Shown here: positions 2,204 through 41,709 of the stretch, piece after piece | Layout: the number at the start of each line of letters is the position of its first letter | Numbering within the stretch: position 1 is the first letter of the stretch | From: Tidjanibacter sp. | GTDB lineage: Bacteria; Bacteroidota; Bacteroidia; Bacteroidales; Rikenellaceae | DNA length: 64,000 nucleotides | Assembly (NCBI GenBank): GCA_045634145.1 | Contig: JAZQZS010000005.1 | Span: forward strand, 32,492 to 96,491 | Reading direction: 5' to 3' | Notes under the pieces: generated by a model | The model's input: the letters and a program-made list of their open reading frames with translations, nothing else | Told to the model about the DNA's origin: nothing | Databases searched by the model: none | Position numbers and translations under genes: made by a program

Positions 2204-2238
2204 TCAACTTTCAACTTTCAATTTTCAATTTTCAATTC
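2204..2238 (-). repeat. tandem heptamer array, 5 units (TCAAYTT on +, AARTTGA on -)
   Basis: tcaactt tcaactt tcaattt tcaattt tcaattc. The murE stop codon (TGA, 2225-2227) lies inside the array. Confidence 0.9.
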
Positions 2239-3676: not shown

Positions 3677-3765
3677 CTTTTTTTTCTTTTTGCACCTTTT
3701 TTGTAAAAAGCTGCACCAAAAACTTTTCTGAGATACTCGCTGCGCTCATATCTCTTACTGTCTAT
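3677..3765 (-). repeat. dispersed ~90-nt structured intergenic element, copy A (reverse orientation), abutting the murE ATG
   Basis: Reverse complement reads ..GTAAGAGATATGAGCGCAGCGAGTATCTCAGAAAAGTTTTTGGTGCAGCTTTTTACAAAAAAGGTGCAAAAAGAAAAAAAAG-ATG. Near-identical to copies at 53964-54053 and 61588-61696. Confidence 0.8.
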
Positions 3766-3780
3766 GCTATTAAAAAACTT

Positions 3781-3801
3781 TCAACTTTCAATTCTCAATT
3801 C
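3781..3801 (-). repeat. tandem heptamer array, 3 units (TCAAYTY)
   Basis: tcaactt tcaattc tcaattc. The ftsI stop codon (3781-3783) is the TGA of the last unit; the protein ends ..ELRIES. Confidence 0.85.
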
Positions 3802-6377: not shown

Positions 6378-6401
6378 GTCTAACGTCTAACGTCAAATGT
6401 C
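6378..6401. repeat. tandem heptamer array GTCTAAC type, ~3.4 units
   Basis: gtctaac gtctaac gtcaaat gtc. Confidence 0.7.
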
Positions 6402-6437
6402 TTTAAGGAGTTTAGGGAGATTAGGAAGTTTAGGGAA
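6402..6437. repeat. tandem 9-mer array, 4 units (TTTAGGGAG type)
   Basis: tttaaggag tttagggag attaggaag tttagggaa. Confidence 0.8.
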
Positions 6438-6446
6438 GGGTAACTC

Positions 6447-6474
6447 TCAACTTTCAATTTTCAATTTTCAATTC
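6447..6474 (-). repeat. tandem heptamer array, 4 units (TCAAYTT)
   Basis: tcaactt tcaattt tcaattt tcaattc. The rsmH stop (6468-6470) is the TGA of the first unit on the minus strand. Confidence 0.9.
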
Positions 6475-7385: not shown

Positions 7386-7387
7386 TT

Positions 7388-7414
7388 TTTACAAAGTATA
7401 AAATACTTTGTAAA
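7388..7414. promoter_or_regulatory. perfect 12-bp inverted repeat with 3-nt spacer, 3 nt upstream of the rsmH start codon
   Basis: TTTACAAAGTAT-AAA-ATACTTTGTAAA. Candidate operator or 5'-leader hairpin at the head of the dcw cluster; function unknown. Confidence 0.3.
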
Positions 7415-7527
7415 GGTACAGCTTTTGTCGCAAATTTTGCAACAAATTTGACGGTTATTTTTCAGGATTTTATCAACACCCCGCCCAAGATGTGGGCTAT
7501 CCTCCTCAGAGTGAGCAGTTGTGGGTG

Positions 7528-9692: not shown

Positions 9693-9720
9693 GGCTGCTT
9701 TGGGCTTCGCCGCTGGAACT

Positions 9721-9765
9721 GCCACCTTTTTGTAAAAAGGCGGCCCCAAAAACTTTTAGTGTAGC
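9721..9765 (-). repeat. partial copy (B) of the dispersed structured element: hairpin-2 core only
   Basis: Reverse complement reads CTAAAAGTTTTTGGGGCCGCCTTTTTACAAAAAGGTGGC. Same AAAAGTTTTTGG and CTTTTTACAAAAAG core as the full copies, with compensatory changes in the GC clamp. Confidence 0.6.
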
Positions 9766-9822
9766 CCTTGCGGTGTCTTGTGGCTGGCTGAGGTCTGCCT
9801 ATCGGCAGCTGACATAAAAATA

Positions 9823-9876
9823 ATAGGGAGAGCCCTCCTGCAAGTAACTTGCGTCGGGCCCTCCCTATCATTTTTC
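9823..9876 (+). terminator. intrinsic terminator candidate downstream of pepD
   Basis: ATAGGGAGAGCCC ... GGGCCCTCCCTAT: 13-bp stem with 1 mismatch, inner GCAAGT/ACTTGC pairing, followed by CATTTTTCT. Confidence 0.55.
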
Positions 9877-9930
9877 TGCTATCCCCCCTACGGGCGATAG
9901 CCCTCATCCATCCACCAGCCTCCGAAAAAG

Positions 9931-9951
9931 GTCTAACGTCTAACGACAATA
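9931..9951. repeat. tandem heptamer array GTCTAAC type, ~3 units
   Basis: gtctaac gtctaac gacaata. Confidence 0.65.
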
Positions 9952-9956
9952 GTAGA

Positions 9957-10023
9957 TTATAGGAGCAATAAGTATCCTATAACTCCTATATCTCCTATTA
10001 TAATTATTAAGGAGTTTAGGGAT
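9957..10023. repeat. 9-mer-type repeat block with units in both orientations
   Basis: ttataggag (9957-9965); then tcctataac tcctatatc tcctattat (9975-10001, the inverse orientation); then ..taaggag tttagggat. Confidence 0.6.
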
Positions 10024-10032
10024 TCCTAACTT

Positions 10033-10060
10033 TCAACTTTCAATTTTCAATTTTCAATTT
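10033..10060 (-). repeat. tandem heptamer array, 4 units (TCAAYTT)
   Basis: tcaactt tcaattt tcaattt tcaattt, followed by T8. Lies downstream (minus sense) of the sigma-unit terminator. Confidence 0.85.
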
Positions 10061-10079
10061 CTTTTTTTTGCTGAGCAGC

Positions 10080-10110
10080 AAAAAAAGAGGGATGCTTCAC
10101 AGCGTCCCTC
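10080..10110 (-). terminator. intrinsic terminator of the ECF sigma transcription unit
   Basis: Minus strand reads GAGGGACGC-TGTGAA-GCATCCCTC: 9-bp stem with one G.U pair, followed directly by TTTTTTT. Confidence 0.7.
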
Positions 10111-10133
10111 TTTCAATCAAACTTCTCTAACAC

Positions 10134-10286
10134 CTAATTCACTGTCTTGGACGAAAGTATCTCGCGCAGTAGAGTGTCCAAATAGAGCAACTCGGCGTCG
10201 CCACAGATAACACTCTCATACATAAGCGCTTCGTCTTCGCACGCTGGACAGTTTATCATCTGCTTGTTGTTGTCAAAATCTACCAT
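10134..10286 (-). CDS. small hypothetical protein (50 aa) downstream of the ECF sigma factor
   Basis: Below the ORF-track size cut-off. My translation: MVDFDNNKQMINCPACEDEALMYESVICGDAELLYLDTLLREILSSKTVN. It ends 24 nt before the terminator hairpin and contains CPAC plus a third Cys. Confidence 0.3.
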   Translation of the reverse strand: MVDFDNNKQMINCPACEDEALMYESVICGDAELLYLDTLLREILSSKTVN

Positions 10287-10378
10287 AGGCTGTGTGGTTT
10301 TGTGGTTAGCGGGGCTGCAACCTTTGCAACCCTCTCGCTATACAAACGGCCTATGGTGCGGGTTTATTGCACAAAATT

Positions 10379-10969
10379 CTATTCGAGCGACAAATTATTC
10401 TCCTTGATCATCTTGCGCAGGTTTATTAGGGCGTAGCGCATACGGCCCAAGGCGGTGTTGATACTCACCTCGGTCTGGTCGGCTATCTCCTTGAAACTCA
10501 GATTGCCATAGTAGCGCATCTTGATCACCTCGCGCTGTTCGTTGGGGAGCTGTTCGATGAGCTTGCGGAGGTCGGACTCGATTTGCTCGCCCACCATTCG
10601 CTGCTCGATAGACTCCTCGCTCAGGCGTTGGGTGCCGATGATGTCGTAGCCCGCCTCGCTCTCGGTGACGGTGGGGTTGTGTTTCTGTGAGCGGAAGTGG
10701 TCGATAACCTGGTTGTGGGCAATACGCATAACCCACGACACAAAGCGCCCCGAGTCGGTGTAGCGACCCTGGTCGATTACCCTCACGGCCTTGATGAAAG
10801 TCTCCTGAAAAATGTCGTCGGCCAACTCGGCATCTTTGACCATCATATAGACATAGTCATAGACGCGCTTCGAGTGGCGCGAAATAAGGGTGGATATTGC
10901 TTCGGGATTGCCTGCACGATAAGCTTCGAGCAACTCGCGGTCGCTCAGGCTTACTTGATTCTTAATCAT
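10379..10969 (-). CDS. RNA polymerase sigma-70 family, ECF-type sigma factor
   Basis: 196 aa; region 2 (..FQETFIKAVR..) and region 4 HTH (..LSFKEIADQTEVSINTALGRMRYA..). Confidence 0.88.
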   Translation of the reverse strand: MIKNQVSLSDRELLEAYRAGNPEAISTLISRHSKRVYDYVYMMVKDAELADDIFQETFIKAVRVIDQGRYTDSGRFVSWVMRIAHNQVIDHFRSQKHNPTVTESEAGYDIIGTQRLSEESIEQRMVGEQIESDLRKLIEQLPNEQREVIKMRYYGNLSFKEIADQTEVSINTALGRMRYALINLRKMIKENNLSLE

Positions 10970-13041: not shown

Positions 13042-13085
13042 AAAAAACCTCTCTGCATTTGGCCAAATGCAGAGAGGTGTTTTTG
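13042..13085. terminator. bidirectional intrinsic terminator: perfect 30-nt palindrome flanked by an A-run and a T-run
   Basis: AAAAAA-CCTCTCTGCATTTGG|CCAAATGCAGAGAGG-TGTTTTTG (palindrome 13048-13077). Confidence 0.65.
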
Positions 13086-13115
13086 TCGACCGTCGGGCGT
13101 CAACCGTCAACCGAC
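13085..13115. repeat. tandem heptamer array GTCRRCC type, ~4.4 units
   Basis: gtcgacc gtcgggc gtcaacc gtcaacc gac. Confidence 0.7.
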
Positions 13116-13169
13116 TTTAAGGAATTTAGGAAGGTTAGGGAGTTTAGGGAGTTTGAGGAATTTAGGTAA
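13116..13169. repeat. tandem 9-mer array, 6 units (TTTAGGGAG type)
   Basis: tttaaggaa tttaggaag gttagggag tttagggag tttgaggaa tttaggtaa. Confidence 0.9.
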
Positions 13170-13172
13170 TTC

Positions 13173-13186
13173 TCAATTCTCAATTC
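13173..13186 (-). repeat. tandem heptamer array, 2 units (TCAATTC)
   Basis: tcaattc tcaattc. The stop of the 13173-13781 gene is the TGA of the second unit; the protein ends ..YIRIEN. Confidence 0.75.
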
Positions 13187-18277: not shown

Positions 18278-19429
18278 CTATTTCGATTGCGTTGTCATCA
18301 GTCGGTAGAGTTCCTCGATGGTGTCGGCCGTGGCGTCCCACGAGAAACGATACTTCTCTCGTTCTATGCCCTGGCGGTAACGCTCCAAGTTACCCTCCTG
18401 CCAAGCCCTCTCGATAGCCTCGGCAACACTCTCGGCACTCACATCGGCCAACAATCCCACCACGTCGTGGCGGACAATCTCTGCCAAGCCTCCCACGCGC
18501 GTAACTATCATAGGTACTCCAAATGCATAGGCCACCTGGGTAACGCCGCTCTGGGTTGCAGACTTGTAGGGCAGGGCCACCATCTCGGCCACCGAGAAGT
18601 AGTCGGCCACCTCTCCGTCGGGCACAAAGCGGGTGTGCATAACTACCTCGCTCTCCAAGCCAAGGCGGGCAATCTGCTCGACATACTTGGTGTCGTCGCC
18701 GTAGACTTCGCCCACAACGAGCAGTTTGCGACCCTCGGTCAAGCCCCTCTTGTGGAGCATAGCCCAAGCCTCTATGAGCAGGTCGAGCCCCTTGTAGTCG
18801 CGGATGTAGCCGAAGAACATCACATACTTGTTGTTCGGGTCGAGCCCCAAGTGGGCACACGCCTCGGTGCGCTCCTTCTTAGAGCCGTAGGTGTCGAACA
18901 GAGGGTGGGGCGAAAAGAGTGCAGGGCGACCTGTGTGGTAGGTGTCGAGGTCGGCCTTTACAGCCTCGGACATATAGACAAAACCGTCGCACGAGCCCAG
19001 AAAATAGCGGTTCAGCAGGCGGTCGTAGAAGTGATTTTCGTGGGGAGTGATGTTGTCCACGTGGATAGCCACCTTGGTGTGACCATTCTTGCGGGCCAGG
19101 CGGCAGATGGTGCCAAAGCAGGGAGCCATCAGAGGGGTCCAATACTTCAACACCACAAGGTCGGGCCTCTGGCGACGCAGCTTGCGACCTACTCGTAGCC
19201 ACGAGAAGGGATTTACGGTGCTCACGGTGCGCTCTATGGCGAGATCGTCGGGGGCTGCTCCGCTACGAAACTGACTCTTGCCCGGAAAGAGCAGACGGGG
19301 GTACTGCAACGAGAAGGTGTCGATACTCACCTCGTTGCCTCGCCCCGCAAATGTGCGAGCCAGAGTTTCGATTATCGTCGCCAAACCACCCCTATACGGA
19401 TAAGCCGGCCCTATGAACTTAATTTTCAA
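18278..19429 (-). CDS. glycosyltransferase family 4
   Basis: 383 aa, GT-B fold pattern (..PYKSATQSGVTQVAYAFGVPMIVTRVGGLAEIV..). The only usable start is the TTG at 19429-19427, inside the heptamer array, with an in-frame TGA two codons upstream. Confidence 0.85.
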   Translation of the reverse strand: MKIKFIGPAYPYRGGLATIIETLARTFAGRGNEVSIDTFSLQYPRLLFPGKSQFRSGAAPDDLAIERTVSTVNPFSWLRVGRKLRRQRPDLVVLKYWTPLMAPCFGTICRLARKNGHTKVAIHVDNITPHENHFYDRLLNRYFLGSCDGFVYMSEAVKADLDTYHTGRPALFSPHPLFDTYGSKKERTEACAHLGLDPNNKYVMFFGYIRDYKGLDLLIEAWAMLHKRGLTEGRKLLVVGEVYGDDTKYVEQIARLGLESEVVMHTRFVPDGEVADYFSVAEMVALPYKSATQSGVTQVAYAFGVPMIVTRVGGLAEIVRHDVVGLLADVSAESVAEAIERAWQEGNLERYRQGIEREKYRFSWDATADTIEELYRLMTTQSK

Positions 19430-19453
19430 CTTTCAATTCTCAATTTTCAATTC
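19419..19453 (-). repeat. tandem heptamer array, 4 units plus 1 degenerate (TCAAYTY)
   Basis: ttaattt tcaactt tcaattc tcaattt tcaattc. Fills the gap between the ClC stop (19459) and the GT4 start. Confidence 0.85.
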
Positions 19454-19458: not shown

Positions 19459-21252
19459 CTACTCTTGGGTCATTTCGCGCAGTTTTTCGCGATAGGCCGT
19501 AAGGATGTTCGACTTGCTCAGGAAGCCCTGATAGCGGCCCTCCTTGTCCACCACGGGCAGGTTCCACGCACCCGTCTGCTCGAACTTTTCGAGAACGCTG
19601 GTGGCCGACTCGGTGATGGTAATGATGTCGGGCGGAGTGGTCATATAGCGCTTAACCGAGTTGGGGTACTTGGTCTGGTCGAACATATCTTTCCTAAGGC
19701 GGTCGAACTCGATGACGCCCAGCAGTTTGCCCTCGCTGTCGATTACGGGGAAGATGTTGCGCTTGGTGTGGGGAATAACCTTCACAACCATATCTCCCAG
19801 CGTGTCATACTCGCCCACGCTGAGGATGTCGGTCTCGACCAACTCGCGGATCGAGAGAATTACGCTCACGGCTTGGTCTTTGTCGTGGGTGAGCAGCTGT
19901 CCCTTCTTGCGGAGCGACTTGGTGTAGATCGAGTCGGGCTCCAAGTAGCGGTCGATAACGTAGGAGACGCACGACACCAGCATCAGCGGAACGAAGAGCT
20001 GGTAGGCACTCGAAATCTCGGCAATAAGGAAGACTGCCGTTAGCGGAGCCTTCATCACACCACTCATAATGCCCGCCATACCCACCAACGAGAAGGCGGC
20101 AATCGAGAGATCCATACCGAGCCAGGTGTTGCACACATAGGCCACAATGGCACCCATAAATGCTCCCACGAAGAGCGAGGGTGCAAATGTACCACCCACA
20201 CCTCCTGCGGCATTGGTCACGGCCATTGCGATCACCTTGAAGAACATAATGCCCAGCAGGTAGATCAACACCACCAACTCCATACCCTGAAAACGGTAGA
20301 AGGGTGAGTTATTGAAGACGGTACCGATGTCGCCCTTCATAAAGTTGTGGAACACCCCGTAGCCCTCGCCATACAAGGCGGGGAAGATGATAATCAGCAC
20401 ACCCAGAGCCAGACCGCCCGAAAGCCACTTGCCCCATTGGGTCTTGATGCGGCCAAAGCGAGCCTTGATGCGGAAGTTGGTGCTGGTAAAGTAGTAGCAC
20501 ATAAGTCCGCACAGCACGGCCAGAACGGTGTAGATAGGTATGTGGGAGAGAGTTAGCGAGGGAATGTCGGCCGAGAGCATAGGCTCAAAGCCACGCACCA
20601 CAAAGGTCAGAGTCACGGCCGTTACCGACGAGATAATCAGCGGGATGATGGCCGTCATACTCATATCGAGCAACAGAATCTCCATCACGAAGATTACACC
20701 CGTAATGGGGGCCTTGAAGATGGCCGAGAGGGCTGCCGCCACACCACACGCCAACATAAGCGTCAGGGTGCGGTAGTTGAGCTTCATCAGTCGGCCAATG
20801 TTGGAGCCGATGGCTGCACCGGTCAGCACAATGGGGGCCTCGGGACCCACCGAACCACCAAAACCGATGGTCAGAGCACCGCCCACCACCGACGAGTAAC
20901 AGTTGTGGGGCTTGATGACCGACGAGTCGGTACTCATAGCTTTGAGCACCTTGGTCACACCCTCCGAGATATCGTCTTTGATGATAAAGCGTACAAAAAT
21001 GGTGGCCAGAATGATACCCACGGCGGGGTAGACCAGATAGAGCCAACCGATCTGCTCCACGGCAAACCAGCTTGTCAGGCCGTGTTTGATGAGTTCGAGC
21101 AACCACTCGAAGATGCAGGTCACACCACCTGCCACAAGGCCGATGATTATGGCCAAAATGAAGGTCAGCTGGCGTATGTTTATGCGCCTGCTCTGCACCG
21201 AAAGCCAGAGTTGTGCTCTCTGCAAAAGTGTCTGTCTGCCGTTCATCTGCAT
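19459..21252 (-). CDS. ClC-family chloride channel/antiporter with C-terminal CBS pair
   Basis: 597 aa, multi-TM; selectivity-filter-like GSVGPEAP and GVMKAPLT; two CBS-like modules at the C-terminus. Confidence 0.9.
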   Translation of the reverse strand: MQMNGRQTLLQRAQLWLSVQSRRINIRQLTFILAIIIGLVAGGVTCIFEWLLELIKHGLTSWFAVEQIGWLYLVYPAVGIILATIFVRFIIKDDISEGVTKVLKAMSTDSSVIKPHNCYSSVVGGALTIGFGGSVGPEAPIVLTGAAIGSNIGRLMKLNYRTLTLMLACGVAAALSAIFKAPITGVIFVMEILLLDMSMTAIIPLIISSVTAVTLTFVVRGFEPMLSADIPSLTLSHIPIYTVLAVLCGLMCYYFTSTNFRIKARFGRIKTQWGKWLSGGLALGVLIIIFPALYGEGYGVFHNFMKGDIGTVFNNSPFYRFQGMELVVLIYLLGIMFFKVIAMAVTNAAGGVGGTFAPSLFVGAFMGAIVAYVCNTWLGMDLSIAAFSLVGMAGIMSGVMKAPLTAVFLIAEISSAYQLFVPLMLVSCVSYVIDRYLEPDSIYTKSLRKKGQLLTHDKDQAVSVILSIRELVETDILSVGEYDTLGDMVVKVIPHTKRNIFPVIDSEGKLLGVIEFDRLRKDMFDQTKYPNSVKRYMTTPPDIITITESATSVLEKFEQTGAWNLPVVDKEGRYQGFLSKSNILTAYREKLREMTQE

Positions 21253-22446: not shown

Positions 22447-24285
22447 ATGAAGATATATTGGCGATTGCTCGGCTTTGCCCGACCCCTTGGCAAGTATGCC
22501 GTTCCTTACTTTTTTTACACCCTTTTTTACGCTCTGTTCAACACGTTCAACTTCGTGATGATCATCCCCTTGCTGCGTACTCTGTTTGGTGCCGAGGGGG
22601 CTGCCGAGCTGGTTACTGTCAAGCCCGAGTTTAGCCTCAGTATCGACTATGTGACCGACCTGCTCAACTATTGGCTCTACTCGCTCTACGGAGCCGACTA
22701 CAATACCCTCAATGTGTTGGTATTTTTGGCGGCTTTTGTGACCCTGTCGGCCTTTTTGAGCAACTTGTTCCGCTACCTCGGTCAGCGTACCATCGAAAAC
22801 CTGCGAATCAACACGCTCCAAAATATGCGCAATCTGGTCTACGACAATGTCTTGGACTTGAATTTGTCGTTTTTTAGCTCGGCACGCAAGGGCGACGTTA
22901 TGAGCCGCATCACGTCGGACATCCAGACCGTCAGGTTCTGTATCGTGAACACCTTGCAGGTGGCCTTCCGCGAGCCCTTCCTGATTATCGGCTACATCGT
23001 GGCTATGGTGTCGATTTCGTGGGAGTTGAGCCTCTTTTCGATTATCTACCTCCCGCTGGTGGCTCTGTTGATTGGCTCGATTGTGAAAAAGTTGCGCCAC
23101 CCTGCACTGAAAGCACAGCAGAACTTTGGCGAACTGACCTCGGTGCTCGACGAGTCGCTCTCGGGTGTGAAGGTCATCAAGGCCTACGGAGCCGAGGGCT
23201 TCTTCAAGGGTAAATTCCGTGGCGTAAACGGCTCATATTCCAAGATTTCGCGCAGTATGATGTACCGTCAGCAGCTGGCCTCGCCTATGAGCGAATTTTT
23301 GGGCATCACCGCTGCGGCAGGTCTGCTTATCTTTGGCGGTCTGCTGGTACTCGGCGGAGAGAGCGGACTCGACGGTAGCGGCTTTATCGCCTACCTTGCA
23401 ATCTTCACCCAGATTACACGACCTATGCGCTCGTTTACCGACGCTTTTGCCAACATAAATCAGGGTATCGCTGCGGGCTCGCGTGTGCTCGAACTGCTCG
23501 ATGCCGAGAGCACCATCAAGACCCCCGAAAAGGAGGCTGTAACCCTTGGCGAGTTCAAAGACCGAATCGAGTTCCGTGGCGTGAAATTCCGCTACGACGA
23601 GGAGCGTGAGGTGCTTGGCGGTATCAACTTTACGGTCAAGAAGGGCGAGACGGTGGCTCTGGTGGGCCCCTCGGGTGGCGGTAAATCGACCATTGCCGAC
23701 CTTATTCCCCGCTTCTACGACGTTACTGCGGGCGAAGTGTTGGTCGATGGCGTAAACATCAAGCAGTACAACGTGGCCTCGCTGAGAGAGAGCATGGGTA
23801 TCGTAACTCAGGAGACCGTGCTCTTCAACGACTCCATCGAAAACAACATCCGTCTGGGCAACACCACCGCCTCGGAAGAGGATGTTGTGGCAGCCGCAAA
23901 AGTGGCCAATGCACACGAGTTTATTATGAATACCCCAGAGGGTTATAACACCAATATCGGCGACCGAGGAACGAAGTTGTCGGGCGGTCAGCGTCAGCGA
24001 CTTTGCATTGCCCGCGCCATCCTCAAAAATCCCGAAATCCTTATCCTCGACGGGGCCACCTCGGCCCTCGATACCGAGAGCGAAGTGCTCGTTCAGGAGG
24101 CCCTCGAAAAGCTGCTCAAAGGTCGCACCTCGGTGGTCATTGCACATAGGCTTAGCACCATCCGCAATGCCGATAAAATCTTGGTTGTAGACCACGGCCA
24201 GATTGTCGAGCAGGGCACCCACGAGGAGCTTATTGCCTACGGCGGACTCTACTCCAAACTTGTGGAGTTGCAGCAGCTCGATTAA
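22447..24285 (+). CDS. ABC transporter permease/ATPase half-transporter (MsbA-like exporter family)
   Basis: 612 aa; 6-TM domain plus NBD with Walker A GPSGGGKST, Q-loop, signature LSGGQRQR and H-loop AHRLST. Walker B is ILILD followed by G instead of the catalytic E. Confidence 0.9.
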   Translation: MKIYWRLLGFARPLGKYAVPYFFYTLFYALFNTFNFVMIIPLLRTLFGAEGAAELVTVKPEFSLSIDYVTDLLNYWLYSLYGADYNTLNVLVFLAAFVTLSAFLSNLFRYLGQRTIENLRINTLQNMRNLVYDNVLDLNLSFFSSARKGDVMSRITSDIQTVRFCIVNTLQVAFREPFLIIGYIVAMVSISWELSLFSIIYLPLVALLIGSIVKKLRHPALKAQQNFGELTSVLDESLSGVKVIKAYGAEGFFKGKFRGVNGSYSKISRSMMYRQQLASPMSEFLGITAAAGLLIFGGLLVLGGESGLDGSGFIAYLAIFTQITRPMRSFTDAFANINQGIAAGSRVLELLDAESTIKTPEKEAVTLGEFKDRIEFRGVKFRYDEEREVLGGINFTVKKGETVALVGPSGGGKSTIADLIPRFYDVTAGEVLVDGVNIKQYNVASLRESMGIVTQETVLFNDSIENNIRLGNTTASEEDVVAAAKVANAHEFIMNTPEGYNTNIGDRGTKLSGGQRQRLCIARAILKNPEILILDGATSALDTESEVLVQEALEKLLKGRTSVVIAHRLSTIRNADKILVVDHGQIVEQGTHEELIAYGGLYSKLVELQQLD

Positions 24286-24286
24286 C

Positions 24287-24319
24287 GTCGACCGACAACC
24301 GTCGACCGTCGACCGACAG
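24287..24319. repeat. tandem heptamer array GTCGACC type, ~4.7 units
   Basis: gtcgacc gacaacc gtcgacc gtcgacc gacag. Begins 2 nt after the ABC transporter stop codon. Confidence 0.75.
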
Positions 24320-24358
24320 AGGTGGCCTAAGTCTTTGAAATACTATAACCTAAATACT

Positions 24359-29713: not shown

Positions 29714-30772
29714 ATGAAGGTACTTGTTACAGGAGCAGCAGGTTTTATCGGCTCCAACTTGGTCGAAAGGCTGCTGACAACCGAGAGCCCCATCGAAATC
29801 GTGGGCCTCGATAGCGTGAATGACTACTACGACGTGAGCATTAAAGAGTATCGACTCGGTAAGTTGGATACGCTCGCAGCTCAGTATCCCCAAAGTAAGT
29901 GGGAGTTTGTTAAGGGCAACTTGGCAGACAAAGCGCTCATCGACCGACTCTTTGCCGAGAACGACTTTGAGGTGGTAGTAAACCTTGCAGCACAAGCTGG
30001 CGTGCGCTATTCCATCACCAATCCCGATGCTTATATCGAGAGCAACCTTATCGGCTTCTACAACATTTTGGAGGCTTGTCGCCACAGCTACGACGGTGGT
30101 AAGAGGGGAGTGCAGCACTTGGTTTATGCATCGTCAAGCTCGGTGTATGGTAGCAATAAAAAAGTGCCATATTCGACCGATGATAAGGTTGATAATCCAG
30201 TAAGTCTGTATGCTGCGACAAAGAAGAGCAACGAATTGTTGGCTCACTCGTATAGCAAACTCTACAATATTCCTTCGACAGGTTTGAGATTTTTTACCGT
30301 CTATGGCCCCGCGGGTAGGCCCGATATGGCATACTTTGGCTTTACCGACAAACTGCGTAAGGGCGAAACTATCAAGATCTTCAACTACGGCAACTGCAAG
30401 AGGGATTTTACCTATGTGGATGATATTGTTGAAGGTGTTCAGAGGGTGATGCATAAGGCTCCCGAGAGGCGCAACGGTGAGGACGGACTTCCCGAGCCTC
30501 CCTATGCAGTATATAATATAGGAAACTCCAATCCCGAGAATCTTTTGGACTTTGTGGATATTTTGCAGCAGGAGTTGATACGTGCGGGAGTGCTGCCTGA
30601 GGACTACGACTTTGAGGCGCATAAGGAATTGGTCCCAATGCAGCCTGGCGATGTGCCAGTGACCTTTGCAGACACAAGCGCATTGGAGCGTGATTTTGGC
30701 TTCAAACCCCACACCCCTCTGCGCGATGGCCTCCGCAAGTTCGCCGAGTGGTATAAGGAGTTCTATGGCTAA
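29714..30772 (+). CDS. NAD-dependent epimerase, UDP-glucuronate 4-epimerase type
   Basis: MKVLVTGAAGFIGSN; YAATKKSNE (YxxxK); directly follows ugd. The ORF-track TTG start at 29702 is less likely. Confidence 0.82.
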   Translation: MKVLVTGAAGFIGSNLVERLLTTESPIEIVGLDSVNDYYDVSIKEYRLGKLDTLAAQYPQSKWEFVKGNLADKALIDRLFAENDFEVVVNLAAQAGVRYSITNPDAYIESNLIGFYNILEACRHSYDGGKRGVQHLVYASSSSVYGSNKKVPYSTDDKVDNPVSLYAATKKSNELLAHSYSKLYNIPSTGLRFFTVYGPAGRPDMAYFGFTDKLRKGETIKIFNYGNCKRDFTYVDDIVEGVQRVMHKAPERRNGEDGLPEPPYAVYNIGNSNPENLLDFVDILQQELIRAGVLPEDYDFEAHKELVPMQPGDVPVTFADTSALERDFGFKPHTPLRDGLRKFAEWYKEFYG

Positions 30773-30818
30773 TTTCTTAAAATCCTTATATGTAAAAAGG
30801 AGGTTTATTTGATTTGTT

Positions 30819-31811
30819 ATGAATATATTGATTACTGGTATTCACGGATTTGTTGGTAGTAATCTGGTGAAATCACTATCTTTGAATAACACCATCTATG
30901 GTTTAGATATTGTTTGTCCCGAGAAAGAAGGTGTGGTGAAAACCTATTCTTGGGATGATTTAGACAAAGGGGAAATCCCTCCCGTCAATGCTATTATACA
31001 TCTTGCAGGTAAGGCCCACGATACAAAGAATAAGAGTACAACCGATATTTATTTTAAAGTCAATACAGGCCTCACTCAACGTATTTTTGATTGGTATATG
31101 GCCAATTCTTGTGCGAGCAAGTTTATTTTCTTTTCAACAGTTAAAAGTGCTGCTGATTATGTTGTCGGAGACATTCTTACAGAGGAATGTGTTCCAACTC
31201 CCGTGGGCCCTTATGGTGAAAGTAAAATTGCTGCCGAAAATTACATCATAAGCAAATATTCTCCCGAGTCTATGGCAAATCCATATCATAGTTTTGGGGA
31301 CAGCAGGTTATATTCCAACAAAAAGGTTTATATAATGCGTCCTTGTATGATTCATGGTCCGGGAAATAAGGGCAATCTAAATCTGCTTTATAATGTTGTG
31401 GCAAAAGGAATTCCTTGGCCTTTGGGTGCTTTTGAAAACCGTCGTTCTTTTACTAGTATAGACAATTTGTGTGTAGTTATAGAGGGCCTCTTGTCGCAAA
31501 ACGTCGAGAGTGGCATATATCATATGGCTGATGATGAAGCACTATCTACAAATGAGCTGATATGTGTTATTTGTGAGGCTCTTGGACGTAAGAGTCATAT
31601 TTGGCACATCAACAAAGGTTTTATGAATGCAGTTGCAAAAGTTGGAGGGTGGTTACATTTGCCTTTGAACCCATTGAGGATGCAGAAATTGACAGAAAAC
31701 TATGTGGTTAGTAATGCGAAAATCAAAGCGGCACTATCCCTTGACGACATGCCAATAACTGCGAAGGAGGGACTGATTCGAACAATTACAAGTTTTAAGG
31801 AGACGAAGTAA
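30819..31811 (+). CDS. NAD-dependent epimerase/dehydratase family protein (possible UDP-4-keto-6-deoxy-HexNAc 4-reductase, WbpK/WbpV-like)
   Basis: ITGIHGFVGSN and YGESKIAAE. Sits between a WbpM-type dehydratase and a WbpL-type transferase; the functional guess is by analogy only. Confidence 0.7.
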   Translation: MNILITGIHGFVGSNLVKSLSLNNTIYGLDIVCPEKEGVVKTYSWDDLDKGEIPPVNAIIHLAGKAHDTKNKSTTDIYFKVNTGLTQRIFDWYMANSCASKFIFFSTVKSAADYVVGDILTEECVPTPVGPYGESKIAAENYIISKYSPESMANPYHSFGDSRLYSNKKVYIMRPCMIHGPGNKGNLNLLYNVVAKGIPWPLGAFENRRSFTSIDNLCVVIEGLLSQNVESGIYHMADDEALSTNELICVICEALGRKSHIWHINKGFMNAVAKVGGWLHLPLNPLRMQKLTENYVVSNAKIKAALSLDDMPITAKEGLIRTITSFKETK

Positions 31812-31822
31812 TAAAATTATTC

Positions 31823-32800
31823 ATGAGCACAAGTATCACTTATATAAGCATTGCGCTGATTTTAGTGGTGTTGGAGTTAATCTATTTCCGCATCGCTAAT
31901 CACTTTAACATTATAGACAAACCAAATTTACGTTCATCACATAGTAGTATTACACTTCGAGGCGGAGGAATTATATTCCCTTTGGCGATGGTAGTATATG
32001 CTATATTTTTGGGGGTGAGCTATCCTTGGTTCTTTGTCGCTCTTTTGGCTTTAAGTATCATTAGTTTTATTGATGATATCCGTTCTGTTCCGAATTCTGT
32101 GCGACTAGTTGTGCAATTCGCTGCTATGCTTATGGTAATTGGACAGTGGGGAATTTTGTCGTGTAACATGTGGTGGATGATTGTTATTGCACTGATATTC
32201 TGCACAGGTGTAATCAATGCATACAATTTTATGGATGGTATCAATGGTATTACTGGTGGGTACAGCTTGGCGGTATTAGTGCCATTGTCAGTGATAAATC
32301 ATTACACACCATTTGTTGAAATGCATATCATAATAGTGTCAATAATCAGTGTCTTGGTATTTTGTTTCTTTAATTTTAGAAAGAAAGCCAAATGTTTTGC
32401 TGGTGATGTTGGCTCAATAAGTATTGCATTTATAATTATCTTTATTCTCGGTAAACTGATTGTCCAAACTGGAGATTTGTGGTACATCATGTTGCTCGCT
32501 CTGTATGGTGTAGATGCAATACTTACCATTATTCATAGAATAATGCTCCACGAGCCACTAGGTCAAGCACATCGCAAGCATGCGTATCAACTTATGGCCA
32601 ATGAGCTGAAGATTCCCCATGTTGTGGTGTCTTCTATATATATGATTGTACAACTTGTGATAGCCGCTGGACTTATTTGGTTGCCAATTAATAAGTGGCT
32701 ATATTCTATTGTGGTGTTAGTTCTTCTGTGCGTGGCGTATGTCTTATTTAAGAAGAAGTACTACCATTTACACGAAGAGTACCTTAAATCAAAGGAGTAG
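31823..32800 (+). CDS. undecaprenyl-phosphate HexNAc-1-phosphate transferase (WecA/WbpL, MraY-like family): initiating transferase
   Basis: 325 aa, ~10 TM; NAYNFMDGINGITGG motif. Confidence 0.85.
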   Translation: MSTSITYISIALILVVLELIYFRIANHFNIIDKPNLRSSHSSITLRGGGIIFPLAMVVYAIFLGVSYPWFFVALLALSIISFIDDIRSVPNSVRLVVQFAAMLMVIGQWGILSCNMWWMIVIALIFCTGVINAYNFMDGINGITGGYSLAVLVPLSVINHYTPFVEMHIIIVSIISVLVFCFFNFRKKAKCFAGDVGSISIAFIIIFILGKLIVQTGDLWYIMLLALYGVDAILTIIHRIMLHEPLGQAHRKHAYQLMANELKIPHVVVSSIYMIVQLVIAAGLIWLPINKWLYSIVVLVLLCVAYVLFKKKYYHLHEEYLKSKE

Positions 32801-32804
32801 AACA

Positions 32805-33206
32805 ATGATTCTCGACAAACAACTTCTCGATGAGGTGAGTGCGCGAGCCAAAGAAAGTGAGCGCCTTAGGATGAACTACAACCTCCACGAGGCTATGGAT
32901 TCTAAGGCTCAGCGACTCTTTAATGCTCTTGAGCCTGGAACAATTTTGCCCATCCATCGACACCAGCACACCTCCGAAACTTATATTCTTGTGCGTGGTC
33001 GTATAGATGTTATGTTCTATAACGACGAGGGTGTTGAGGTCGAGCGTTTTGCACTCAATCCACACGATGGAAACTATGGTGTGCACATTCCCAATGGGCA
33101 GTGGCACACTTTGGAGGTATTGGAGAGTGACACCGTGATATTTGAGGTTAAGGACGGCCCATATGCGCCTCTTGGCCCCGAGGATATGATGACACGTAAT
33201 GAATAA
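32805..33206 (+). CDS. WbuC-family cupin protein
   Basis: ~133 aa from MILDKQLLDE; cupin His cluster PIHRHQHTSETYILVRG. Confidence 0.7.
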   Translation: MILDKQLLDEVSARAKESERLRMNYNLHEAMDSKAQRLFNALEPGTILPIHRHQHTSETYILVRGRIDVMFYNDEGVEVERFALNPHDGNYGVHIPNGQWHTLEVLESDTVIFEVKDGPYAPLGPEDMMTRNE

Positions 33207-34284
33207 GATTTGCGAGATACTCTTTGCGACACTGCGCGGAGCTCTTAACAACACTCTTGTTGATGGAGCCTTGGCAAGTGGAATCGACGATGCCGATTGG
33301 AGGGATTTCCTGAAATTGGCACAGCAACACAATGTCGTACCACTTGTTTGTGATGGTTTTGTCGGATTGAAGAAGATGTTGCCACCGAAAGTTTTTGCAC
33401 GAGTGGCAGGACTTACGGCCATGGCAGAGGATAAGTACTCTGTTCGCGTGGGGGTAATTGAGAAACTTGCCGGCTTGTTGTCATCGCACAATATCCCCTT
33501 GATGGTCTTAAAGGGCTATGGAGTGAGTCTTTACTATCCCAACCCTTGCCATCGTGTATTCAGCGATGTGGATACCTATAATTTTGGAAGGCTGGAAGAG
33601 GCCGACAGAGTTATGGCAGAGCAGTTGGGTGTAGAGATTGATGTAGATGTTCACCACCACACAACTTGCGTCTATAATGGGGTGCTAATTGAGAATCACT
33701 ACGATTTTGTAAACACCTCTGCTCATAATTCCAATGCTCGCTTCGAGAAGATTTTGAAGGCCGAGGCAGAGAATGTAAGTAGAAAACATAAGATTGGTGA
33801 TAGCGAGATTTTGCTTCCGTCGCCAATGTTCAATGCTCTGTTTTTGATGCGCCATATGGCTTTGCACTATGCAGCCGAGAGGGTGAGTGTGCGCCACCTG
33901 TGCGATTGGAAACAATTTGTGGAGGCCGAGGGCCATAATGTTGATTGGTCGCGAGTTCAGGCGATATATAAGCAGTTCAATATGAAACGCTTTGCAGATG
34001 CTATTACTGCTATATGTATTGACAAATTGGGGCTTGATGGCTCTTTAGTGCCTGGTATTGAGCGAGATGAAAAGATCGAGCAACGCATATTGCACGATAT
34101 CTTGTATGCCGAGTTTGACGAGGAAAAACCGAAGGATGGCTTGTTGAGGATTGTGTGGTGGAAGACCCGTCGCTATTTTGCCAACAGCTGGAAACACAAG
34201 TTGATATACAACGAGTCGGTTTTGTGGACATTTATCCAGTCGTCGTATTCTCACCTACTTAAACCGAAAACGATTAAACACTAA
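33199..34284 (+). CDS. uncharacterised nucleotidyltransferase-family protein (NTP_transf_5-like)
   Basis: 361 aa. VLKGYG..FSDVDTY and ..HHHT.. pattern recalled from this family, which is often found in polysaccharide loci. Confidence 0.55.
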
Positions 34285-34294
34285 AATAATACGA

Positions 34295-35170
34295 ATGAAA
34301 GGTATTGTATTAGCAGGTGGTAGTGGTACACGTTTGTATCCCATTACAAAGGGGGTTAGTAAACAGTTGCTACCGGTTTATGATAAGCCGATGATATATT
34401 ACCCCATCTCGGTGCTTATGTTGGCGGGTATTAGGGATATTATGATTATCTCTACTCCCCACGATATGCCTGCATTTCAACGACTTTTGGGTGACGGCTA
34501 CGATTATGGCGTGAGGTTTGAGTATGCCGTACAGCCTCAGCCTAATGGCCTTGCCGAAGCATTCATTATCGGCAAAGAGTTTATCGGTAGCGATGATGTA
34601 TGTTTGGTTTTGGGCGATAATATCTTTTATGGTCAGGGCTTTACGGGTATGTTGCAGGATGCGGTTAGTAGGGTAGAGCAAGAGAGAAAATCTACCATAT
34701 TTGGCTATCGAGTGCCCAATCCGGAACGATTCGGAGTGGCAGAAGTTTCGGCAGATGGCTCGGTGGTAGGTATTGAGGAAAAACCCTCGTGCCCCAAGAG
34801 TGATATTGCTGTTACGGGACTCTATTTCTATACAAATGAGGTGATCAGTGTCGCACAGAGAACTACCCCATCACAGCGAGGCGAGTTGGAGGTTTCGGAT
34901 GTGAACAAGGCTTTTATGGAGCGAGGAGAGCTCTATTTACAGCAGCTTGGTCGTGGTTTCGCTTGGCTTGATACGGGTACTTTGGAGAGCCTTTTTGATG
35001 CGTCCAGATTTGTTGAGGTTGTGCAGTCGCGTCAAGGCGTACAGATTGCCTGCTTGGAGGAGATTGCTTGGCGTAAGGGCTGGATATCAAGTGAGCGTTT
35101 GCGCGAATTGGCCGAGCCAATGAAGGGCAATGCCTATGGAAAATATATGCTAAAATTAGCAGACCGATAA
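34295..35170 (+). CDS. rfbA: glucose-1-phosphate thymidylyltransferase
   Basis: [18 protein letters not shown].. Confidence 0.95.
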
Positions 35171-35718
35171 TGACTATTCATAAGACAGGTATAGAGGGAG
35201 TTGTTGTTGTAGAGCCAAGAGTGCTTGGCGACGAGAGGGGTTATTTTTTTGAGTCCTTCTCGGAGCGTGATTTTGCGGCTGCTACGGGCATTGAGGTAAA
35301 GTTCGTGCAGGACAACGAGAGTATGTCGAAGAAGGGCGTTCTGCGTGGTCTGCACTTCCAGAATGAGCCCTATGCACAGGCCAAAATGGTGCGTGTGGTT
35401 AGGGGCAAAGTTCTTGATGTGGCAGTGGATATCAGACCCGAGAGCCCCACTTTCGGAAAGTATGTTGCAACCGAGCTAAGTGGCGAAAATCACCGCCAGA
35501 TGTTCATACCCAAAGGCTTTGCACACGGCTACTTGGTGCTGGAAGATAATACCGTTTTCCAGTACAAATGTGATGAGTACTATCATCCCGAGTCCGAGGG
35601 AGGCATCGCTTGGGACGATCCCCAGATTGGTATCGAATGGGGAGTTGAGACGGATGATGTAATCCTCTCTGATAAAGATAAAAACAGACCAATGCTGAGC
35701 AGTTTATGCGAGTTTTAG
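35170..35718 (+). CDS. rfbC: dTDP-4-dehydrorhamnose 3,5-epimerase
   Basis: 182 aa; ..DERGYFFESF.. RGLHFQ .. Confidence 0.93.
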   Translation: MTIHKTGIEGVVVVEPRVLGDERGYFFESFSERDFAAATGIEVKFVQDNESMSKKGVLRGLHFQNEPYAQAKMVRVVRGKVLDVAVDIRPESPTFGKYVATELSGENHRQMFIPKGFAHGYLVLEDNTVFQYKCDEYYHPESEGGIAWDDPQIGIEWGVETDDVILSDKDKNRPMLSSLCEF

Positions 35719-36560
35719 TTACAGGTGCCGATGGACAACTGGGTAGGTCTATCCGGAGGGTGACAGAGGGTGTTGAGGATAGCTATATCTTCACCGATGT
35801 TGCCGACCTGGATATTACCGACAAGAGCGCTGTCGATGCATTTGTGGCGGCCAATGGCATAGATGTGATTGTAAATTGTGCGGCATATACCAATGTGGAG
35901 AGGGCAGAGGATGAGGAAGATAAGGCCTTGCTGCTTAATGCCACTGCGGTTGGCTATTTGGCCGAGGCAGCAAAACAGAACGATGCCCTGCTGATTCACA
36001 TATCGACCGACTATGTCTATATGGGAGGTTGCTGCTCGATGCTTACAGAGCAGAGCAATCCTCAGCCGCTAAATGCTTATGGTCGTACCAAATGGGCCGG
36101 AGAGCAGGCTGTTATGGCTAGCGGATGTCACCATATTATTTTGCGTACTGCGTGGCTCTATTCCGAGTGGGGCAGCAACTTTGTGAAGACAATGTTGCGC
36201 CTGACTGCCGAGCGAGAGAGTGTAAATGTGGTAAGCGACCAAATCGGCACTCCTACCTATGCCGAAGATCTTGCGAGGGCTATTGTGCAGATTGTCTCGG
36301 AACGACATTTCAGGGAGGGAGTGTATCACTACACCAATATGGGTGAGTGTTCGTGGTGGCAGTTTGCTTGCGAGATTGCCCGCCTGGCGGGGAACGATAG
36401 GTGTGAAATAAGGCCTTGCACCACAGCCGAATACCCCACTAAGGCTCGTCGACCACTGAATACGGTGTTAGATAAGAGTAAATTTATTCGCACTTTTGGT
36501 ATCGAGATACCAGAGTGGCGAGAGTCGCTTAAAAAATGTATAGATGAGCTCCAAGCGTAG
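35706..36560 (+). CDS. rfbD: dTDP-4-dehydrorhamnose reductase
   Basis: 284 aa; MRVLVTGADGQLG .. NCAAYTNVERAE .. Confidence 0.92.
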   Translation: MRVLVTGADGQLGRSIRRVTEGVEDSYIFTDVADLDITDKSAVDAFVAANGIDVIVNCAAYTNVERAEDEEDKALLLNATAVGYLAEAAKQNDALLIHISTDYVYMGGCCSMLTEQSNPQPLNAYGRTKWAGEQAVMASGCHHIILRTAWLYSEWGSNFVKTMLRLTAERESVNVVSDQIGTPTYAEDLARAIVQIVSERHFREGVYHYTNMGECSWWQFACEIARLAGNDRCEIRPCTTAEYPTKARRPLNTVLDKSKFIRTFGIEIPEWRESLKKCIDELQA

Positions 36561-37665: not shown

Positions 37666-37689
37666 GTTGTAACATATTGAAAACTTATA

Positions 37690-41221: not shown

Positions 41222-41236
41222 TATATCTTTACGAGA

Positions 41237-41698
41237 ATGATAGAGAAAATAATATTCCTGCGGGGGGGGAGCAGGTCCCATATGCTCAAAAAACTATACT
41301 CATTGGTGTGTATGCCGTTTTTAACATTTAAAGGTTCATATATTGGAAGTGGTGCCAAATTTGCTGGCGCTCCAATCTTTCCACATGGAGTAACAGGAAT
41401 ATTTATTTCGTCAGGAGCTGTTATTGGTAAAGACGTTGTAATCTTCCATCAAGTAACTATTGGATCAAACACGCTGAAAGATTCATCTAAGAATGGTTCT
41501 CCAATCATTGGCAATAATGTTTACATTGGTGCAGGAGCAAAAATTATAGGTAAAGTAAAGATTGGAAATAATTGTCGCATTGGAGCGAATTGTGTTGTGG
41601 TAAAAGATGTTCCAGATAACACAACTGTTGTATCACAACCGGCAAGATTCATTATTAAAGAGAGTGTTCCGTCCAATGTCTTTACGAAATTTCAATAA
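41237..41698 (+). CDS. hexapeptide-repeat O-acetyltransferase (CysE/LacA/NodL-like)
   Basis: Left-handed beta-helix repeats IGNNVYIGAGAKIIGKVKIGNNCRIGANCVV. Alternative in-frame start at 41282 (MLKKLYSLV); a G8 tract lies between the two starts. Confidence 0.8.
   Translation: MIEKIIFLRGGSRSHMLKKLYSLVCMPFLTFKGSYIGSGAKFAGAPIFPHGVTGIFISSGAVIGKDVVIFHQVTIGSNTLKDSSKNGSPIIGNNVYIGAGAKIIGKVKIGNNCRIGANCVVVKDVPDNTTVVSQPARFIIKESVPSNVFTKFQ
41262..41269 (+). repeat. G8 homopolymer at the 5' end of the acetyltransferase gene
   Basis: cctgcGGGGGGGGagcagg, embedded in AT-rich sequence. Confidence 0.9.
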
Positions 41699-41709
41699 AG
41701 CATTCGCAT

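Follow-up and report, generated by a model that had tools for sequence, protein, structure and literature searches.

Tandem heptamer repeats lying between genes have been described in several groups of bacteria. Among the long simple sequence repeats (LSSRs) of Mrazek 2007, as related in PMC4679880 and PMC4692102, heptamers are the commonest class in prokaryotes, with slippage proposed for them, and an intergenic heptamer repeat of the unit GGGAATC has also been described (PMC4692102). MacGregor (2015; PMC4679880) reported intergenic TAACTGA arrays that are oriented with respect to genes and that overlap the end of the upstream open reading frame (ORF) in 14 cases, stated explicitly the constraint that stop codon and frame impose for this unit, and proposed a post-transcriptional role; the hosts are Beggiatoaceae, Cyanobacteria and some Bacteroidetes, scattered over phyla. 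Here we analyse a heptamer repeat, (R)ARTTGA, found at gene ends in a 64-kb stretch of Tidjanibacter sp. (Bacteroidales, Rikenellaceae), positions 32,492 to 96,491 of contig JAZQZS010000005.1, which is the whole stretch analysed and is called the window throughout.

Repeats and stop signals of other kinds are also relevant. The units of the short tandemly repeated repetitive (STRR) sequences are CCCCAGT, TTGGTCA and CAACAGT. In enterobacteria, repetitive extragenic palindromes and bacterial interspersed mosaic elements (REP/BIME) occur in many copies as extragenic, transcribed mosaics after or between co-directional genes, with an orientation tied to that of the genes; BIMEs are built of imperfectly palindromic modules, which fold into hairpins and to which IHF and gyrase bind. 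Three-frame stop cassettes, tandem stops and off-frame "ambush" stops terminate translation in any frame or serve as a back-up after read-through, and these are engineered, or are statistical tendencies inside genes, and not dispersed families of tandem repeats.

The repeat family described below is tandem, non-random, sense-oriented, fast-changing, block-copied and dispensable in sister species. The reading that we favour with moderate confidence, from sequence comparisons, is that the arrays are a lineage-specific intergenic family of heptanucleotide simple sequence repeats (SSRs) that has proliferated in some Tidjanibacter, and that their supply of stop codons is a by-product.

Results

Seven oriented arrays and the stop codons that they supply

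We call the (R)ARTTGA array, read on the minus strand, H1 (its plus-strand unit is TCAAYTT), and a second, CGTTAGA-type heptamer module H2. Seven H1 arrays are present in the window, all (R)ARTTGA on the minus strand and exactly where an earlier reading of the DNA, made without database searches (the sequence-only reading), had placed them. The array at the murE end (2199-2238) consists of the units GAATTGA-AAATTGA-AAATTGA-AAGTTGA-AAGTTGA plus a partial AAGTT, and its second unit gives the murE stop. At the ftsI end (3776-3801) there are three units and a partial one, with the stop in the last full unit; at the rsmH end (6442-6474), four units and a partial GAGTT, with the stop in the first; at the end of a gene for a DUF6549 protein (13168-13186), two GAATTGA units and a partial GAATT, with the stop in the second; and at the end of an aminotransferase gene (61725-61745), CAGTTGA-AAATTGA-AAATTGA followed by AGATT, with the stop in the last full unit. 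The remaining two, each of four units and a partial one, are an array in a convergent intergenic region (10028-10060), which supplies no stop, and one (19421-19453) that makes up the entire 29-nt spacer between a ClC-channel gene and a gene for a family 4 glycosyltransferase (GT4). The unit counts given earlier were correct, with the qualifications that the third unit of 61725-61745 is the variant CAGTTGA and that a partial unit (AAGTT, GAGTT, GAATT or AAATT) trails each array.

Tandem pairs of the unit gave nine matches in the window against 0.00 in 100 dinucleotide-preserving shuffles, Tandem Repeats Finder returned period 7 at 7/7 H1 sites, and no H1 array of two or more units lies in the opposite orientation in the 64 kb. 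As in long SSRs, these are head-to-tail copies of a unit of 5-11 nt in excess of chance, and their location is intergenic: all seven lie in spacers, with an ORF overlap of at most 21 nt. Since the unit includes TGA and its length of 7 is not divisible by 3, any ORF entering an array stops within three units; the frame arithmetic of the sequence-only reading, in which three units put a TGA in every one of the three frames while the complement is stop-free in all of them, is right.

Five of the seven arrays donate the stop codon of the upstream gene, with coordinates and protein tails exactly as had been reported (all on the minus strand): MurE (stop 2225-2227, tail ..WGIEN), FtsI (3781-3783, ..LRIES), RsmH (6468-6470, ..AEKN), the DUF6549 protein (13173-13175, ..RIEN) and the aminotransferase (61725-61727, ..KIEN). 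The accompanying claim that the tails are themselves array-encoded fails for rsmH, where only the stop comes from the array. RsmH of an array-free relative (L249, see below) also ends in ..AEKN, with the codons AAC TAA, so that the RsmH tail is not array-derived; such an array-free orthologue with the same C-terminus, which the sequence-only reading had named as evidence against itself, was found for RsmH alone. The identity of the flanking genes was confirmed by Pfam, and the upstream neighbour of rsmH is ispF (YgbB family). Among the 57 genes of the window, stops are TAA in 26, TAG in 23 and TGA in 8, and 5 of these 8 TGA stops are array TGAs, TGA being otherwise rare.

The ClC-channel gene has its own TAG stop (19459-19461), 5 nt ahead of the array 19426-19453. 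This array most likely provides a start codon, since the TTG at 19429-19427, in its last unit, opens the GT4 ORF (18278-19429, minus strand), whose Pfam domain begins at residue 14 with no other start codon preceding the domain; the candidate start region (19409-19429, minus strand) reads MKIKFIGPAYPYRGG...

In minimum-free-energy RNA folds the H1 arrays were unpaired in 6/6 cases, and no known RNA family (Rfam 15, gathering score) matched at the arrays. No terminator-like site overlaps a window array, and a strict scan for a hairpin followed by a T-run found no window array with a terminator. The array 10033-10060 lies 318 nt downstream of a gene for an extracytoplasmic function (ECF) sigma factor (10379-10969), just past two hairpins (10063-10111). 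We rejected terminator arms as a general explanation of the arrays, because the same strict scan of 140 arrays elsewhere placed a terminator within 120 nt downstream in 7/140 and upstream in 5/140. We also rejected a phase-variable contingency SSR, since the arrays stand at 3' ends and not in a 5' coding region or promoter.

Turnover and loss of arrays among relatives

The best MurE matches were from Tidjanibacter, Rikenellaceae, at 93-75% identity. The MurE C-terminus is conserved among them as far as ..HFSDQEEV and then diverges, with array-coded tails in many orthologues (GIEN, LRIEN, LKIEN, LKIQN, EIQNAKCKIQN) and other tails in the rest (FDSEAV, FNEIG, FRTLEQ). On the MurE tree, array-type tails are patchy and occur in at least three clades.

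The regions of six relatives, labelled here by locus, illustrate how quickly the arrays change. In L248 (MurE 93% identical) the array at the murE end is four GAATTGA units, giving ..WEN, against 5.7 units and ..WGIEN in the window; a change of unit number at a gene 3' end thus alters 0-4 terminal residues only. In L120, L121 and L122 (MurE 86%, 78% and 76%), arrays occur at the ends of rsmH, ftsI and murE and at further junctions, and unit numbers differ from those of the window while the order of modules is identical. L249 (87%) has no H1 array in the region fetched, and L123 (77%) has none in a collinear operon; the spacers of both are short and purine-rich. In 21 kb, L123 has no period-7 and no period-9 array, and L121 has 11 and 12, respectively. 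Repeat-rich and repeat-poor genomes thus occur among close relatives, and unit number changes between them (L248, L120, L121, L122), as in long SSRs, with a signature of slippage: identical units were adjacent 50 times, against 43.2 +/- 2.6 in shuffles (P = 0.007).

Two further kinds of change were seen. The ftsW-murG spacer of L121 is nearly identical to its murG-murC spacer, non-repeat junctions included, which indicates that whole blocks are copied. And at several L121 and L122 junctions the H1 slot is occupied by arrays of AAATTCA, which has no stop in any frame; these arrays lie inside called genes, which run through them to a terminal AATTAA and acquire tails of up to 11 residues, such as ..KIQNAKFKIQN. 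Arrays at orthologous junctions begin at the same codon in four species.

Orientation relative to genes

The sequence-only reading had called the arrays strand-locked. This is true of the direction of the upstream gene and untrue of the DNA strand, since single contigs of relatives carry arrays on both. Its observation that no plus-strand gene of the window has an array is accurate but carries almost no weight: of the co-directional junctions of at least 50 nt, 6/9 on the minus strand and 0/3 on the plus strand have arrays (Fisher p about 0.09), which is not significant, so that the window alone cannot separate a lock to gene direction from a lock to the DNA strand. With gene calls that take GC content at third codon positions (GC3) into account, H1 arrays of Rikenellaceae relatives lay in the direction of the upstream gene in 23 cases and in the opposite direction in 7, and the exceptions were mostly second arms of inverted pairs or arrays just ahead of start codons.

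We then scored gene-end adjacency from the dominant long ORF, requiring an array edge within 30 nt of the gene's stop. These calls, with the dominant-ORF test, replace an orientation table built greedily from longest ORFs (63 same, 48 opposite), which was dropped on account of antisense shadow ORFs in a GC3-rich genome; counts of arrays before the 5' end of an ORF were also dropped, being inflated by construction for stop-bearing orientations. Among the matches listed, AARTTGA arrays abutting a gene end were sense in 31 and antisense in 7 cases in GTDB genomes (binomial p = 1e-4), and 32 and 7 in viral contigs (binomial p = 7e-5); the proposed preference for gene 3' ends thus holds beyond this genome. 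Inverted array pairs, for which no gene calls are needed, were head-on in 23 cases and back-to-back in 1, mostly between convergent gene ends. In other genomes, 26/153 arrays provide the TGA at which an ORF of 120 codons or more ends.

Strand composition and stop content can be compared with a second unit, AAATTCA, because in it A-richness and stops fall on opposite strands: the A-rich strand is stop-free and the T-rich strand has TGA. Arrays abutted a gene end in 63/222 cases when the sense strand was A-rich with stops (AARTTGA), in 9/61 when A-rich without stops (AAATTCA), in 8/61 when T-rich with stops (TGAATTT) and in 14/222 when T-rich without stops (TCAAYTT), so that AAATTCA arrays stood at gene ends 9 versus 8 times by orientation. 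On these small numbers and heuristic gene calls, composition and stop content would each contribute about two-fold to gene-end adjacency.

Spread beyond the genus

In a scan of one genome per species, AARTTGA arrays were found in at least 119 stretches from many phyla, and viral contigs have them too. The taxa among the matches listed include Bacteroidales, Thermoanaerobaculia, Saccharibacteria and other Patescibacteria, Ignavibacteria, Chamaesiphon, Clostridia and others. (CGTTAGA)3 arrays are also present in metagenomes. H1 and H2 were linked, among the matches listed, only in Tidjanibacter-like DNA, and the idea that they form a general pair was discarded: 119 loci selected for H1 held no H2 array, and 850 kb of loci selected for H2 held 16 H1 arrays.

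Two of these occurrences deserve description. In Acidobacteriota/Thermoanaerobaculia (58-67% GC), where the repeat is compositionally foreign, head-on AARTTGA pairs flank a short GC hairpin and T-run (L100 5736-5831, L022 7430-7503, L043 107-196), forming long palindromes between genes that resemble bidirectional terminators. In a Candidatus Absconditabacterales genome, an (AAATTGA)4 array (L009 3280-3314) has TAA on both sides. Absconditabacterales read UGA as glycine, so that the array would be no three-frame stop there.

Repeat mosaics around the arrays

H1 is usually the opening module of a longer ordered mosaic, in which it is followed by nonamers, H2 as (CGTTAGA)n, an A-run and the next start codon. 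H1 lies 5' of H2 at every junction that holds both, in the window and in the relatives L120-L122 and L094. In the junctions of the division and cell wall (dcw) cluster, the distance from H1 to the next start is 79-163 nt and H2 lies 10-25 nt ahead of starts; only the array 19426-19453 touches a start codon. The order H1-nonamer-H2 is common to the rsmH-ftsL spacer, the DUF6549-rsmE spacer and the region 9931-10060, and the blocks at rsmH-ftsL and DUF6549-rsmE have module order and joints in common.

All modules that follow are on the minus strand unless otherwise indicated. The rsmH-ftsL mosaic has nonamers CCCTAAACT, TCCTAATCT, CCCTAAACT and CCTTAAAGA at 6399-6440 and an H2 module, (GA)CGTTAGA-CGTTAGA-C, at 6378-6394, then AAAAAAAAGA and the ftsL ATG at 6367. 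In the DUF6549-rsmE spacer, nonamers CCTAAATTC.. (13113-13166) are followed by the H2-like heptamers GGTTGAC-GGTTGAC-GCCCGAC-GGTCGAC (13085-13112) and, past the mosaic and before rsmE, by a strong hairpin with a T-run that resembles an intrinsic terminator (13042-13078; z-score of the region's fold -4.0), the sole terminator-like site within any window mosaic. Beside the array 10028-10060, the stretch 9931-10021 holds nonamers in both orientations (CCCTAAACT.. / ATAGGAGTT.. / CTCCTATAA), with a predicted hairpin, and then the H2 module CGTTAGACGTTAGAC (9931-9945). The murE-mraY spacer has H1 and seven nonamers of the type CCTTAAKGN / CCTATAACT (2136-2198), which lie between the murE array and a conserved A/T-rich mraY leader.

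A second repeat, R2, is a GAGATA..TATCTC hairpin followed by AAAAGTTTTTGGTGCAGCTTTTTACAAAAAAGGTGC / AAAAGTTTTTGGTGCAGCTTTTT, where AAAAGTTTTTGGTGCAGCTTTTTACAAAAAAGGTGC is itself a second, A/T-stem hairpin. Four copies are present in the window against none expected. The copy at 3692-3758 (GTAAGAGATA..TATCTC, then AAAAGTTTTTGGTGCAGCTTTTTACAAAAAAGGTGC) takes the place of the nonamer and H2 modules and fills what is left of the ftsI-murE spacer; the one at 61612-61679, in the spacer between the aminotransferase gene and an acetyl-CoA-transferase gene, is a paralogue of it and of that at 53981-54038 (plus strand); and the fourth (9735-9757) lies past the end of a plus-strand gene, between convergent genes. 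R2 follows the direction of the upstream gene in three of the four copies, including the plus-strand copy after a plus-strand gene. Variants of R2 occupy many dcw spacers in L122, L248 and L249, and in the murE-mraY spacer of L248 an R2 element replaces the nonamers while the mraY leader is conserved. Unlike H1, some nonamer and R2 modules pair in RNA folds; for R2, a role as a 3'-end hairpin or as an internal regulatory element is possible.

Other features of the window and its relatives

The convergent region 9693-10378 (686 nt), between an M20 peptidase gene and the ECF-sigma gene, contains two hairpins, a full H1-nonamer-H2 mosaic, an R2 copy and GC-rich palindromes (about 9800-9900). Its mosaic has no gene downstream in the mosaic's direction, and a small gene or RNA could be concealed in the region. 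An array of about 4-5 CGTCGAC / CGACAAC units (24286-24320, plus strand) follows the stop of the gene 22447-24285 without a gap, within a convergent spacer of 64 nt, and resembles the GGTTGAC/GGTCGAC module of 13085-13112; heptamer repeats thus follow plus-strand genes here too, though they are not of the AARTTGA type. From 30000 to 43800 the window has a low-GC island (32-47%, against about 54% elsewhere) of packed plus-strand genes with low GC3, which looks like a horizontally acquired polysaccharide-biosynthesis locus; no period-7 or period-9 mosaic is found in it. The sole Rfam match in the window is a Bacteroidales small signal recognition particle RNA (RF04183, 53198-53304, plus strand, 109.7 bits, E = 3e-22), in the divergent spacer 53154-53355.

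The ispF-rsmH spacer is repeat-free in the window (7386-7527, minus strand), L121 (5427-5543), L122 (6165-6292) and L123 (4522-4702). In these four species it has a conserved block ..GACAAAAGCYGTACCTTTACAAAGTATTTTATACTTTGTAA, which includes a TACAAAGTAT..ATACTTTGTA palindrome and is probably a promoter or operator region of the dcw cluster. The dcw spacers of relatives also carry a palindromic repeat that resembles a miniature inverted-repeat transposable element (MITE), ..CACCTCCCCTAACTTAGGGGAGG.. with GCCCTTCGGGC arms, often in several copies and in both orientations (L121 9372-10000, 11489-11906 and 18694-19529; L120 6910-7370; L122 9807-10000; L248 1-40). One L121 spacer has a DUF559-like ORF between two copies. 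This CCCCTAAGTTAGGGG element is absent from the window.

Discussion

Proposed stop-codon capture by a simple sequence repeat

If the arrays are an SSR family, replication slippage or unequal recombination would generate and alter them, together with copying at the level of blocks. An array in sense orientation could capture the stop codon of the gene that it follows, because slippage or deletion of the native stop would then affect only 0-4 residues at the C-terminus. An array in the other orientation would lengthen the protein, and sense arrays would be the ones to survive flush with ORF ends. A separate preference for a sense strand that is A-rich, C-free and unstructured would add to the orientation bias. 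The donated stops, and the one probable start codon, would then be consequences of the arrays and not their purpose. The presence of TGA in the unit is no special design either, since every A4T2G1 heptamer must contain TAA, TAG or TGA.

Several observations weigh against this account. Many arrays have a common polarity, with GAATTGA first and AAGTTGA last, a pattern not expected from pure slippage. Arrays persist at orthologous junctions though MurE is only 76-86% identical, and modules keep a fixed order, both of which would fit a function as well. After gene ends CGTTAGA is biased 43:15 in orientation, yet it has stops on both strands, so that stop content alone is insufficient to explain orientation. 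It is odd, if the arrays are a neutral by-product, that so AT-rich a unit as AARTTGA stands at gene ends in the GC-rich Acidobacteriota. Lastly, gene calls outside the window are heuristic.

The main rival, to which we give a clearly smaller though real chance, is that arrays and mosaics are cis-acting RNA elements of polycistronic mRNAs, C-free, A-rich and single-stranded, conceivably as sites for RNA-binding proteins, as entry points for an endoribonuclease, or as an unstructured spacer or initiation region in Bacteroidota that lack Shine-Dalgarno (SD) sequences. The post-transcriptional role put forward for TAACTGA (MacGregor 2015) is of this sort. Sense orientation to genes (7/7 arrays of the window; 23 with and 7 against the gene direction in Rikenellaceae relatives), the unpaired state of the arrays in folds, the fixed order of modules with H2 and an A-run 10-25 nt ahead of start codons, and the persistence at orthologous junctions are all in their favour. 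So is the array 19426-19453, which is a whole spacer with the likely TTG start of the next gene, and so is evidence that orientation does not depend on stops: the preference for an A-rich sense strand in stop-free arrays (AAATTCA 9/61, TCAAYTT 14/222) and the bias of CGTTAGA. Each AARTTGA unit presumably also fits the enterobacterial RNase E motif RN|WUU. Set against these, congeners with the same dcw operon do without arrays and have short purine-rich spacers, arrays are replaced or lost between relatives with MurE 87-93% identical, the middle modules flip orientation or are swapped for unrelated repeats, inverted copies are present in sense transcripts, and no candidate binding factor was identified. 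A related idea, avoidance of Rho utilization (rut) sites, was a poor fit, since the stop-free AAATTCA arrays have C but no G.

The mosaics might instead be non-autonomous cassettes, similar to MITEs or BIMEs, that insert at gene 3' ends with a stop-bearing edge, which we consider unlikely. The copying of near-identical whole blocks, including non-repeat joints, at two neighbouring L121 junctions would be explained in this way, as would the module order and joints that the rsmH-ftsL and DUF6549-rsmE blocks share, the recurrence of GAATTGA-AAATTGA-AAATTGA-AAGTTGA across loci and species, the patchy presence on the MurE tree and the insertion of other repeats into these spacers in relatives. But inspection of the aligned blocks showed neither terminal inverted repeats nor target-site duplications at their ends, no associated transposase was found, and module content and number vary from junction to junction. 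The shared start codon position in four species fits inheritance better than repeated insertion, and H1 and H2 are each cosmopolitan, linked, among the matches listed, only in Tidjanibacter-like DNA.

A bolder combination is about as doubtful: that the mosaics are portable intercistronic cassettes and that AARTTGA is a conserved RNA-level signal across phyla and phages, rather than the outcome of a selection filter. Equally doubtful is the division of labour that this would entail, with a stop edge that ends any upstream gene in any frame and an edge of CGTTAGA and A-run that permits SD-independent initiation. If true, cassettes copied between junctions would let genes be joined into operons.

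The sequence-only reading had offered a stop pad as one of two possibilities; on this view arrays would be selected as frame-independent stops that release ribosomes in any frame, frameshifted or read-through ones included, before the intergenic region. This we regard as improbable. The TGA in all three frames within three units, with a stop-free complement, the stop donated by 5/7 arrays, the 26/153 arrays that end an ORF of at least 120 codons elsewhere and the 23:1 excess of head-on pairs flanking convergent gene ends are what it would predict, and, at matched strand composition, orientations with stops are about two times as frequent at gene ends as those without. That two-fold effect is predicted equally by passive stop-codon capture, however, and a stop pad would not be replaced by stop-free AAATTCA, which is translated into tails of up to 11 residues in the same slot at several L121/L122 junctions, nor be dispensed with by congeners that have a collinear dcw cluster. 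In addition, 2/7 window arrays give no stop, any A4T2G1 heptamer must hold one, and an AAATTGA array also occurs in the Absconditabacterales genome. TGA is the leakiest stop codon, and it is the rarest in this genome.

That the arrays are assembly or sequencing artefacts can be dismissed for practical purposes: short repeats are hard to assemble and the L120 contig ends shortly after its murE array, but the same arrays, in frame with the same genes, appear in independent assemblies from different samples and pipelines and in isolate genomes such as Bacteroides salyersiae DSM 18765 (L020), and at 14-40 nt they are far below read length.

Consequences for annotation and genome evolution

Fast-changing repeats determine where genes end in these Bacteroidales, and probably where at least one begins; C-terminal tails such as ..IEN or ..KIQN are encoded by the repeat and can be dispensed with, and the arrays inflate TGA stop usage. 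For genome evolution, the arrays offer a clear case of stop-codon capture by an SSR, with array-rich and array-free sister species for comparison. The sense orientation of about 4:1 among AARTTGA arrays that abut genes, in bacterial genomes and viral contigs alike, with a contribution of about two-fold from strand composition and from stop content each, amounts to a simple rule on where heptamer repeats are tolerated. There is no new kind of system here unless an RNA-level function is shown.

Comparison with known systems

The suggestion that the arrays belong to a new class of element does not survive comparison, since intergenic heptanucleotide tandem repeats were already known (LSSR, STRR, GGGAATC, TAACTGA). 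Literature searches found no prior description of the AARTTGA unit, and a sequence search gave irrelevant eukaryotic matches only. H1 resembles the LSSRs (Mrazek, Guo and Shah 2007), which have units of 5-11 nt and are mostly intergenic and patchy. As that work is represented in PMC4679880 and PMC4692102, it describes neither this unit, this lineage nor ordered heptamer-nonamer-heptamer mosaics, and it gives no rule of sense arrays flush with gene 3' ends, the placement that the window arrays show.

TAACTGA arrays are like H1 in being intergenic, of 2-6 or more units, oriented with genes, unstructured as RNA and provided with forward stops in all frames, and in Bacteroidetes they share spacers with other heptamers, as in the mosaics of the window (PMC4679880). 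The units differ, being (R)ARTTGA and, downstream, CGTTAGA in the window. So does the anchoring: TAACTGA lies mainly one to a few nucleotides before starts (PMC4679880), whereas H1 is anchored at the upstream stop; the start-proximal slot is taken by TAACTGA there and by CGTTAGA here, and block-level mosaics are not described for TAACTGA (PMC4679880). The STRR sequences of heterocystous cyanobacteria (Mazel et al. 1990, cited in PMC4692102) are likewise dispersed, noncoding tandem heptamers at many loci, but they belong to another phylum, the host here being Tidjanibacter of the Bacteroidales, and as cited they have no reported link to stop codons. The TTTTGAT heptads of the Vibrio cholerae ctxAB promoter (bioRxiv 10.1101/2021.05.14.444153) are A/T-rich and vary in copy number between strains, as H1 does between relatives; they are a promoter element at a single locus that recruits transcriptional regulators, where H1 is a 3'-end repeat at many loci.

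With REP/BIME the mosaics of the window share short modules, orientation with genes and a position between co-directional genes, and they differ in that H1 is a non-palindromic tandem array predicted to be unpaired and not a hairpin. H1 has the same effect on translation as stop cassettes and ambush stops, but these data do not support selection for that effect. The ordered mosaics of Tidjanibacter, and the replicated rule of orientation at gene 3' ends, may be new.

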